Source: a virus (taxonomy: Duplodnaviria > Heunggongvirae > Uroviricota > Caudoviricetes). Taken from it: DNA of 51,634 nt. Below are positions 47,742-50,213 of this stretch, one piece after another. Positions within the stretch are counted from its first letter, which is position 1. Every line of letters starts with the position of its first letter. The position numbers and the translations under genes are program-made. Location of the stretch: the IMG/VR virus record IMGVR_UViG_2579779024_000005. One strand, 5' to 3'. Below the pieces are notes generated by a model. The model was given only the letters and a program-made list of their open reading frames with translations. It was not told the origin of the DNA and did no database searches.

Positions 47742-50213
47742 ATGAGTAAAGTCTTTATTTGCGCCGCCATTCCGGACGAACAGGCAATAAAGGAAGAAGG
47801 TGCCGTCGCTGTAGCCACTGCCATTGAAGCCGGTGATGAACGTCGCGCCCGCGCAAAATTTCACTGGCAATTCCTGGAACATTATCCGGCTGCTCAGGAC
47901 TGCGCTTATAAATTTCTTGTCTGCGAGGATAAACCCGGTATACCCCGCCCTGCCCTCGATTCCTGGGATGCTGAATATATGCAGGAAAACCGCTGGGATG
48001 AGGAGTCTGCTTCCTTTGTCCCGGTTGAGACTGAATCCGATCCGATGAACGTCACTTTTGACAAGCTGGCCCCTGAAGTACAGAACGCTGTCATGGTTAA
48101 GTTCGACACATGTGAAAACATCACCGTTGATATGGTTATTAGCGCACAGGAATTGTTGCAGGAAGACATGGCAACATTCGACGGACATATCGTTGAAGCG
48201 TTGATGAAAATGCCAGAAGTTAACGCCATGTATCCGGAGCTTAAGCTGCATGCCATCGGGTGGGTTAAGCATAAATGTAAGCCTGGTGCCAAATGGCCCG
48301 AAATTCAGGCAGAGATGCGCATCTGGAAAAAACGTCGTGAAGGTGAACGCAAGGAAACCGGAAAATACACGTCTGTTGTTGATCTCGCCCGCGCCAGAGC
48401 CAATCAACAGTACACTGAAAATTCAACAGGAAAAATCAGCCCGGTCATTGCTGCCATTCATCGCGAATACAAGCAGACATGGAAAACACTGGATGACGAA
48501 CTGGCCTACGCTCTCTGGCCTGGTGATGTGGATGCCGGAAACATTGACGGCAGCATCCATCGCTGGGCAAAAAATGAAGTTATCGACAACGACCGCGAAG
48601 ACTGGAAGCGTATCTCGGCATCAATGCGCAAACAGCCTGATGCCCTTCGCTACGACCGCCAGACTATTTTTGGCCTTGTCCGTGAACGTCCGATCGACAT
48701 TCACAAAGACCCTGTGGCACTGAACAAATACATTACTGAATACCTGACTACAAAGGGCGTGTTTGAAGATGAAGGAAGAAATCAGAGCGCAACTGATACT
48801 CTCTCGTCGCCAGTACCAGAAACTGATGCAGTGGAAACGGCAATTCCGGACAACGAAAAAACCGAATGCAAAGTGGAAGTCGAACCATCTGTAGAGCGTG
48901 AGGGGCCGTTCTACTTCCTCTTCACCGACAAGGATGGCGAAAAATACGGTCGCGCAAACAAACTTTCTGGTCTGGATAAGGCGCTGGCTGCCGGGGCAAC
49001 TGAAATCACGAAAGAAGAATATTTTGCCCGCAAAAACGGCACATACACAGGTTCACAACAAAATACTGATGCATCTGACACGACCGCACAACCAGACCTG
49101 GTAAAAGTTACCGCTGACGAAGTAAACAAAATTATGCAGGCAGCCAGTATCAGCCAGCCTGACGCTAATAAGTTGCTCGCTGCATCACGTGGTGAATTTG
49201 TTGAAGGGATTAGCGACCCGAATGATCCGAAATGGGTGAAGGGGATTGAAACCCGCGATTCTGTGCACCAGAACCAGTCAGAAACGGAACAGTACGACCA
49301 AAAAGCGGAACAAAACAGCCAAAATGCGTTACAAAACGAGCCAGAAACGAAACAACCTGAACCAGTCGTGCAACAGGAAGAGGAAAAAGTTTGTACCGCA
49401 TGCAATCAGACTGGTGGTGGTAACTGCCCTGATTGTGGCGCAGTGATGGGTGACGCAACCTACCAGGAGACATTCAACGAAGAAAGCCAGGATGAAGCCC
49501 GGGAAAAAGATCCAGAGGAAATAGAAAATGCCGGACTCCCGAACAAGGAGTGCACCGAAGGCGATCAACATGCCAATGACAATAATGAAATAGGCGAGAC
49601 AGCAAATCCCTTAATTAAGGTGAACAGTCATCGTAAAAGCACATCCACCAGCAGGTTGTGGCACCATCTGATGATTGACCTTGAAACCATGGGAAAAAAT
49701 CCTGATGCCCCGATTATCTCAATAGATGCAATATTTTTCGATCCGCAAACCGGAGATATGGGACCGGAATTTAGTAAGACTATCGATCTGGAAACTGCTG
49801 GCGGAGTCATTGATCGTGACGTCATTAAAAGGTGGCTGAAGCAATCACGTGAAGCGCAGTCTGCCATTATGACCGATGAAATCCCGTTAGATGATGCACT
49901 GTTACAATTGCGGGAATTTATCGACGAAAACTCCGGTGAATTTTTTGTTCAGGTCTGGGGAAATGGAGCCAACTTCGAAAACACGATTTTGCGCCGTTCA
50001 TACGAACGGCAGGGGATCCCCTGCCCATGGCGTTACTACAACGATCGCGATGTACGCACAATCGTTGAGCTGGGGAAAGCCATAGACTTCGATGCCAGAA
50101 CGGCTATTCCATTCGAAGGTGAGCGCCATAATGCACTTGATGACGCCCGTTACCAGGCAAAATACGTTTCAGTTATCTGGCAAAAACTGATCCCGAATCA
50201 GGCTGATTTTTAA
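47742..50213 (+). CDS. Large early-left protein with C-terminal DEDDh-type 3'-5' exonuclease-like domain (ydfE-like position)
   Basis: 823 aa; C-terminal motifs MIDLETMG (DxE), [10 protein letters not shown] and [10 protein letters not shown]; central zinc-ribbon-like [16 protein letters not shown]; acidic linker. Confidence 0.55.
   Translation: [823 protein letters not shown]

Follow-up and report, generated by a model that had tools for sequence, protein, structure and literature searches.

The question raised by this locus is what kind of protein a prophage encodes at the very end of its early-left operon, and what such a protein could do where no annealase accompanies it. The DNA under study, IMG/VR virus record IMGVR_UViG_2579779024_000005 (Caudoviricetes; 51,634 nucleotides, the whole of which is called the window here), contains an 823-amino-acid (aa) open reading frame (ORF) that closes the early-left (dicB) operon, ahead of xis and int. 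Judged by homology, its product is a scaffold of the RecE family on which the nuclease head has been exchanged. We propose, with a probability of roughly 45%, that this scaffold and its DexA-type head process DNA 3' ends for a phage that depends on host RecBCD. The gene and the parts of its product are as follows; model confidence is given as the predicted local distance difference test (pLDDT) score of AlphaFold2.

47742-50213, plus strand: the complete 823-aa ORF, with its ATG at 47742 and its stop codon at 50211-50213.
47742-48404, plus strand: N-terminal module of YdfE_N type (aa 1-221), with a small alpha/beta domain (aa 1 to ~85) and a helical domain (aa ~105-221).
48474-48776, plus strand: helical core (aa 245-345; pLDDT >93), common by BLASTP and alignment to RecE (residues ~260-370) and every scaffold relative examined.
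48894-49055, plus strand: small beta-beta-alpha-beta-alpha domain (aa 385-438; pLDDT 92-96), a gap in the alignment with K-12 RecE.
49056-49661, plus strand: acidic linker rich in Gln, Asn and Glu (aa 439-640), predicted to be disordered (pLDDT mostly <50) and homologous to RecE residues ~455-591.
49392-49436, plus strand: Cys4 knuckle, C-x2-C-x7-C-x2-C (aa 551-565; pLDDT ~50-62), within the RecE-type linker.
49662-50210, plus strand: predicted DEDDh (DnaQ/DexA/Rv2179c-like) 3'-5' exonuclease domain (aa 641-823; pLDDT 89-98), recognised by PF16473, the AlphaFold2 model, Foldseek and a family profile.
49977-49979, plus strand: codon 746, GAA (Glu), at the metal-ligand position of motif II; the codon is GAC (Asp) in phages mEp460 and Tritos.

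The 823-aa ORF is a real gene. An original prediction, made from the sequence alone, had described a single ORF between ydfD and xis, and the same coding sequence is called by the Prokaryotic Genome Annotation Pipeline in a genome that is 100% identical there (WP_016230610.1, 'exonuclease'). A GAGG lies ~10 nucleotides 5' of the ATG, and the match to PHROG 2082 ('exonuclease') spans aa 1-823. By megablast, 3533 of 5426 complete E. coli genomes contain at least 80% of the gene, and identity reaches 99% or more in 353 records; the isolated phages mEp460, Tritos, HannyBb and PhiR42_1 and PPompW prophages have it as well, and it is intact in mEp460 and Tritos. Given the PHROG and RefSeq entries and these genome counts, the gene is already catalogued (in RefSeq, PHROG and Pfam) and very common in E. 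coli prophages, and its phage class has been published. About two thirds of complete E. coli genomes thus carry a gene whose truncated relic is the K-12 pseudogene ydfE. No functional study of the protein was found in the literature on Rv2179c, ydfE, the RecE N-terminus or anti-defence. In the PPompW prophage of strains carrying Stx2a phages the gene has a 4-bp frameshift (locus L013, 3001-5468), and the copy in Shigella flexneri is fragmented (locus L078, 5197-7544).

The C-terminal ~185 aa are predicted to form a DEDDh (DnaQ-like) 3'-5' exonuclease domain. The original prediction had placed a domain of this kind here and had named profile and structure-based searches as a check, and both kinds of search agree with it. 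The Rv2179c-like family PF16473 matched aa 641-813 over its full length (model positions 1-177 of 177; E 1e-60; 204.9 bits, cut-off 27), and this C-terminal domain was the only part of the protein that Pfam recognised. A profile of the head family matched T4 DexA (E 3e-16) as well as DnaQ and Cas2-DEDDh. In a Foldseek search of the PDB, T4 DexA (8KEL) ranked at the top with E 6e-10, ahead of RNase T, oligoribonuclease (Orn), REXO2, 3'hExo and ERI, with a probability of 1.00 for DexA, RNase T, Orn, REXO2 and 3'hExo. The three motifs that had been named are all present: motif I, MIDLETMG, at aa 644-651 (D646 and E648), which aligns with IIDFETMG of DexA; motif II, NGANFEN, at aa 741-747; and motif III, H-x4-D, within aa 796-805 (H796 and D801). 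In an alignment of 150 sequences, position 646 is Asp in 87 of 93 and position 648 Glu in 85 of 91, while position 796 is His in 94 of 104 and position 801 Asp in 96 of 102. The catalytic conservation that had been set as a check therefore holds at these four residues and is broken at motif II, where the Asp is replaced, conservatively, by Glu746. DexA (PDB 8KEL/8KEN) is the best solved relative, with the same DEDDh fold and motifs, although identity is only ~20%, the extra loops of DexA appear as alignment gaps in the window domain, and the latter has Glu in motif II. A reading of the C-terminal 'NQADF' as a beta-clamp-binding motif was rejected, because the sequence departs from the consensus and family members do not share this tail.

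The rest of the protein is YdfE- and RecE-like. The N-terminal ~350 aa had been left unassigned in the original prediction, and this no longer stands: aa 1-257 are 98% identical to K-12 YdfE, and the sequence from aa 262 onward is homologous to RecE. Precomputed assignments list Pfam YdfE_N (PF27430) and YdfE_C (PF27432) for homologues of 87-99% identity. In a BLASTP comparison with K-12 RecE, aa 262-625 corresponded to RecE residues 278-591 (E 3e-56), with 38% identity overall and very high identity in aa ~475-625. The NCBIfam RecE equivalog (PRK09709) scored 253.1 bits against a cut-off of 1269, matching only its model positions 271-602, on aa 246-625. Pfam Exonuc_VIII (PF06630), which is found in the relatives P0125 and P0122, had no match in the 823-aa protein, and neither Pfam nor the PDB gave a match there to the PD-(D/E)XK nuclease of RecE (PDB 3H4R; DUF3799-like). 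The homology ends at RecE residue ~591, and the literature places the start of the RecE nuclease head at about residues 564-606. Because the homologous segment includes the zinc knuckle and the linker, the protein is, by sequence homology, a RecE-family scaffold with a swapped nuclease head and not a new large protein.

The AlphaFold2 model, built from 150 sequences, contains four units with pLDDT >90 (aa 1-221, 245-345, 385-435 and 641-820), with segments of low confidence between them (aa 347-383 and 439-640), and a predicted template modelling score of 0.41 suggests that these domains are arranged like beads on a string. The long acidic linker that had been described is present and predicted to be disordered, with 19.8% Asp plus Glu against 8.4% Lys plus Arg. 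The zinc-ribbon-like Cys4 motif that had been placed in the middle of the protein is also there, although its central spacing is x7 and not x8 as had been given. The same Cys4 motif occurs in RecE (aa 517) and in the relatives P0123, P0124, P0153, P0190 and P0199, and is absent from more distant relatives; by this distribution, the knuckle appears to be inherited from the RecE-type linker. Within this linker, a conserved peptide of 26 residues (aa 470-495; 49149-49226) is almost identical in RecE (aa ~455-480), and may be a short linear interaction motif.

RecE of the Rac prophage and the window protein are thus both large early-left proteins of lambdoid prophages that share the helical core, the acidic linker, the ...KWVKGI peptide and the Cys4 knuckle. 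They differ in the head, which is PD-(D/E)XK with 5'->3' polarity in RecE and DEDDh with predicted 3'->5' polarity in the window protein, and in the N-terminus, which is Pfam Exonuc_VIII in RecE whereas the first ~260 aa of the window protein are of YdfE_N type. Unlike RecE, the window protein has the extra small domain at aa 385-438 and has no RecT partner. YdfE (b1577), encoded by the Qin prophage of K-12 at the same locus (dicB-ydfD-ydfE), is the protein on which Pfam YdfE_N and YdfE_C were founded. There, ydfE is a pseudogene that retains the first 257 codons and is cut by the insertion sequence (IS) IS2E, whereas the window has the intact ancestral form with linker and nuclease. The K-12 gene lies at NC_000913 1650078-1650998 (locus L003, 5079-5999).

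To place the protein among its relatives, 1.84 billion representative proteins were searched, yielding 10063 relatives, and the long ones were classified by architecture. P0123 joins RecE 1-592 (88% identity) to a DEDDh head of the window type (81% identity), P0125 combines Pfam Exonuc_VIII with an Rv2179c-like domain, and P0139 carries YdfE_N/YdfE_C with a PDDEXK (DUF3799) head. As read from these architectures, nuclease heads of at least two kinds, opposite in predicted polarity, are found on N-termini of two types, YdfE_N and RecE_N. P0129 consists of the scaffold with an unrelated C-terminus, and P0135, P0141, P0148, P0172 and P0204 have a YdfE scaffold followed by a shared, conserved C-terminal domain of ~300 aa that contains GEAQKKSLTDALKKALSLLGFSADVWLGLYD. 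For this third head, Pfam gave only a sub-threshold match to Rad52_Rad22 (E 0.005) and a profile search of the PDB gave no match; this domain may represent an annealase joined to the scaffold, which we regard as a lead and do not claim. In locus L019, a Sipho_Gp157 gene and an integrase gene come next after the third-head gene (5001-7226).

In the loci examined, the type of head is strictly linked with the presence of an annealase gene. In PDDEXK-headed relatives recT lies directly 3' in four of four cases (Rac, L014, HK225 and a Klebsiella phage), the gene 3' of the relative in L014 matching Pfam RecT with E 2e-36. For the DEDDh-headed form, one genome per GTDB species was scanned with the conserved DEDDh alignment. 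This gave 80 loci with a DEDDh domain. In 21 of them the product is a fusion of 600 aa or longer, with an N-terminus that is RecE_N in 18, YdfE_N in 2 and unclear in 1; the genera represented by these fusions are Escherichia, Klebsiella, Citrobacter, Kluyvera, Pluralibacter, Enterobacter, Kosakonia, Atlantibacter, Phytobacter and Dryocola, and phmmer gave 'core' matches in 15 of the 21. Within 7 kb of the fusion, RecT, Bet, Erf and SSB (single-stranded DNA-binding protein) were not detected at any of these 21 loci, and at all 21 an integrase gene lies within 700 bp 3' of it. The window, mEp460, Tritos, vB_EcoS-640R1 and two metagenome contigs share this arrangement, without annealase and adjacent to an integrase gene. 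For the window itself, where the lack of a recognisable Bet or RecT partner had been remarked upon from the start, phmmer searches with two RecT proteins, lambda Bet, Exo and Gam, and epsilon34 Erf, SSB and Abc2 against the six-frame ORFs of at least 40 aa returned nothing at E <=0.01, and the annotation of the near-identical prophage in NZ_CP023844 lists none of these genes either. In the literature covered, we found no earlier statement of the head-swap relation to RecE or of the strict link between head type and annealase.

The head also exists on its own. Stand-alone Rv2179c-like exonucleases of ~182-190 aa, without the scaffold, are encoded by epsilon34 (gp34), mEpX2 and ST64B (sb30) and are 52-55% identical to aa ~628-818 of the window protein; they have been called 'DnaQ-like' Rec-module nucleases (PMC12315714). 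ST64B sb30 lies directly upstream of xis-int, like the window gene. In epsilon34 and mEpX2 the homologue lies between SSB and Abc2, next to Erf, in a module that is missing from the window prophage. The module is a tightly packed Erf-SSB-exonuclease-Abc2 unit in both phages (locus L008, 2311-4391; locus L009, 2311-4395), and this layout indicates that a 3'-5' exonuclease is a regular part of some P22-type recombination modules. Since homologues that are 52-54% identical sit in these modules, and since the closest solved relative is the T4 DNA exonuclease DexA, DNA is a more probable substrate than RNA, and the genomic context favours DNA-end metabolism.

The surroundings of the gene bear on what kind of end metabolism this could be. 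The gene order is DicF, dicB, ydfD (ending at 47649), the 823-aa ORF, xis and int, with the following features on either side of the operon genes.

47047-47098, plus strand: full-length DicF small RNA (Rfam RF00039, 76.7 bits), upstream of dicB and ydfD in the same leftward operon as the exonuclease gene.
50278-51634, plus strand: xis (50278-50526) and int (50504-51634), immediately 3' of the exonuclease gene; the window ends with int, and ompW adjoins in the matching genome.

The window is 99.9-100% identical to a prophage of E. coli 4/1-1 that is integrated beside ompW. It contains 13 Chi sites (GCTGGTGG) against 2.7 expected, a number reached in none of 100 shuffled sequences. Nine of them are on the late-gene strand, mostly at 29.7-39.6 kb on the lysis/Q/nin side, and four on the other strand, the whole set spanning 29695-50241. 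One Chi site lies inside the exonuclease gene (49645-49652, minus strand) and one just 3' of it (50234-50241). Zheng et al. (PMC12315714, Table 1) describe a 'Tritos' class B with a nuclease, without a single-strand annealing protein (SAP), SSB or anti-RecBCD protein, and with 7-21 top-strand Chi sites, and report DnaQ-type nuclease genes near int. In the window, no SAP, SSB or anti-RecBCD homologue was found, and the late-gene strand has 9 Chi sites against a threshold of at least four on the top strand; by these features the prophage fits the Tritos class of Chi-rich lambdoid phages. Tritos itself carries the gene at 91.3% DNA identity and in the same position, whereas the window is a prophage integrated beside ompW with another type of integrase. 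The protein is neither dissected nor tested in the paper that defined the class (PMC12315714).

Together, these observations appear to suggest the following course of events. The protein would appear early once the prophage is induced or a cell is infected, with its gene read from the repressor-controlled leftward operon. Its scaffold would direct the head towards DNA ends, or towards a host partner in DNA metabolism, and the head would trim 3' ends (3' tails or flaps) in the 3'->5' direction. Such an enzyme could condition phage DNA ends for host RecBCD and RecA, for example by blunting 3' overhangs for RecBCD loading, and would probably not feed a phage single-strand annealing reaction as RecE/RecT does. 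RecBCD needs nearly blunt ends, which fits the blunting proposal. End conditioning for RecBCD and RecA is the most plausible role because the prophage is rich in Chi and has no annealase or RecBCD inhibitor.

Several points weigh against this proposal. The activity of the protein and of its fusion relatives is predicted from sequence and structure, and the only tie to RecBCD is the correlation with Chi density. The annealase search used few reference sequences, and a divergent annealase could escape it. The Pfam family of the head, PF16473, is named after an exoribonuclease. Searches of the PDB with the scaffold, by phmmer and with an alignment profile, gave matches only via C-terminal heads present in rows of the alignment; since the scaffold has no recognisable fold relative, its delivery of the head to DNA ends is a conjecture. 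In addition, 3'-5' exonucleases usually depress homologous recombination (PMC12315714). Frameshifted copies in some PPompW prophages, a degraded one in Shigella and the K-12 copy interrupted by IS2 suggest that the gene is dispensable for the lysogen once the prophage is resident.

Finally among these points, the motif II position, occupied by Asp in 96 of 104 family sequences, is Glu746 in the window. Among the 120 closest protein clusters it is Asp in 104 and Glu in 13, it is Asp in all 21 fusion orthologues from other species, and the exact 57-mer around codon 746 occurs in 365 of 2646 matching E. coli records. Because most relatives have Asp and only a minority Glu, the window allele is, on this distribution, a derived and conservative change in a metal ligand. 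Catalysis in the Glu746 allele may be altered or reduced. Coronavirus nsp14 ExoN is an active 'DEEDh' enzyme, so that Glu at motif II can fit catalysis.

A broader form of the proposal is considerably more doubtful. Here, the ~600-residue N-terminus of the RecE family would be a polarity-agnostic platform for DNA ends or host factors that accepts interchangeable heads, the DEDDh form standing for annealase-independent, RecBCD-coupled end processing. The heads would be a PD-(D/E)XK nuclease of 5'->3' polarity, always with RecT, a DEDDh nuclease of 3'->5' polarity, never with an annealase, and possibly a Rad52-like annealase domain. Seeing the protein as a RecE scaffold with a head of opposite predicted polarity and no annealase partner already makes two questions testable: the role of the long RecE N-terminus, through natural chimeras, by head swap and truncation, and the way in which Chi-rich lambdoid phages without a Rec module process ends for RecBCD.

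The ratio of nonsynonymous to synonymous substitution rates (dN/dS) was calculated by the Nei-Gojobori method for the window gene against mEp460 and Tritos, with the following results.

N-terminal module, aa 1-221: dN/dS 0.05-0.10.
Core, aa 245-345: dN/dS 0.13 against Tritos, with no substitutions against mEp460.
Small domain, aa 385-438: dN/dS 0.03-0.09.
Linker, aa 439-640: dN/dS ~0.36.
Nuclease domain, aa 641-823: dN/dS 0.21-0.33.

Every folded domain is under purifying selection (dN/dS 0.03-0.33); the whole protein is maintained in phages, and the constraint on the scaffold is at least equal to that on the head. The lower values of the N-terminal domains (0.03-0.13 against 0.21-0.33) would fit an alternative in which the protein works chiefly through its scaffold, which might for instance bind a host factor or tether DNA ends, and the head is an accessory that is possibly attenuated in the Glu746 allele. 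The relatives without a recognisable nuclease (P0129 and the group of P0135, P0141, P0148, P0172 and P0204) point the same way, as does the Glu at a near-invariant motif II Asp. According to a review (PMC11611040), full-length RecE and its isolated nuclease domain behave differently in linear-linear recombination, and no function is known for the N-terminus of RecE; this difference also speaks for an active scaffold. We nevertheless consider this alternative unlikely: the other four catalytic residues are intact, the DEDDh domain is itself under purifying selection, the Asp is kept in most alleles and in all fusion orthologues of other species, and nsp14 offers a precedent for an active enzyme with the Glu.

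Equally improbable in our estimation is a prophage defence or superinfection-exclusion nuclease, whose head would degrade the 5-hydroxymethylcytosine (5hmC)-type DNA of incoming T-even phages, as reported for EcD (HREX). EcD is a stand-alone DexA homologue of E. coli that, when carried on a plasmid, is reported to break down the T4 genome, leave unmodified DNA intact and confer protection from T4 (PMC12153337), and DexA is the closest solved relative of the window head. Moreover, W152 of DexA, implicated in 5hmC recognition, aligns with the aromatic Y766, a position that is Trp in 42 family members, and most bacterial DexA homologues are placed in Escherichia, Citrobacter and Klebsiella (PMC12153337), which is the range found here. 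The published precedent, however, covers only a stand-alone homologue: DexA and EcD are ~190-227 aa long, whereas the window domain is the C-terminal quarter of 823 aa, and defence gives no role to the RecE-like scaffold of 640 aa. The gene is distal in the repressor-controlled early-left operon, behind dicB and ydfD, and should for this reason be silent in the lysogen. D90 of DexA, which acts in tetramerisation and is Ala in EcD, where its loss defines the 'dimer state', aligns with D718, an alignment of moderate confidence. The sequence of EcD (HAK9828821.1), whose kinship with aa 641-823 is presumed, was not located, and the EcD primer 20-mer (PMC12153337) found only unrelated DNA in viral and metagenome collections. 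Finally, the stand-alone homologues lie within phage recombination modules, and the PADLOC match was negligible (E 0.027).

Least probable of all is that the head trims the 3' ends of RNA or breaks down short, possibly signalling, oligonucleotides in the manner of Rv2179c, RNase T or Orn, serving RNA turnover or anti-defence against nucleotide immune signalling: the Pfam name ('3'-5' exoribonuclease Rv2179c-like'), the '3'-5' exoribonuclease' label of many members at NCBI and the structural neighbours listed after DexA (RNase T, oligoribonuclease, REXO2, 3'hExo and ERI) speak for it, but a family name is weak evidence because DEDDh enzymes often accept DNA as well as RNA, profile and structure alike place the DNA exonuclease DexA nearest, Erf-type DNA recombination modules contain homologues between SSB and Abc2, the scaffold is common to the DNA exonuclease RecE, and no nucleotide-signalling context was seen.

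Some further observations concern the annotation and the surroundings of the gene. In many phage records, among them three loci (L006, 3672-6113; L012, 4001-6472; L002, 6001-8472), DEDDh-headed proteins are labelled 'exodeoxyribonuclease VIII' or 'exonuclease VIII, ds DNA exonuclease'. Applied to such proteins, the label 'exodeoxyribonuclease VIII' implies the wrong polarity and the wrong fold, those of the 5'-3' PD-(D/E)XK nuclease of RecE. Within the gene, the counts of candidate promoters and terminators were not above the expectation from shuffled sequence. At the other end of the element, the near-identical reference prophage (locus L005, 43456-45758) has an IS21-family element, ISEc12 (istA/istB), that splits a Lom/Ail-like outer-membrane gene; since the window aligns without a break across that region, it very probably carries the same ISEc12 insertion at ~4.9-7.2 kb.

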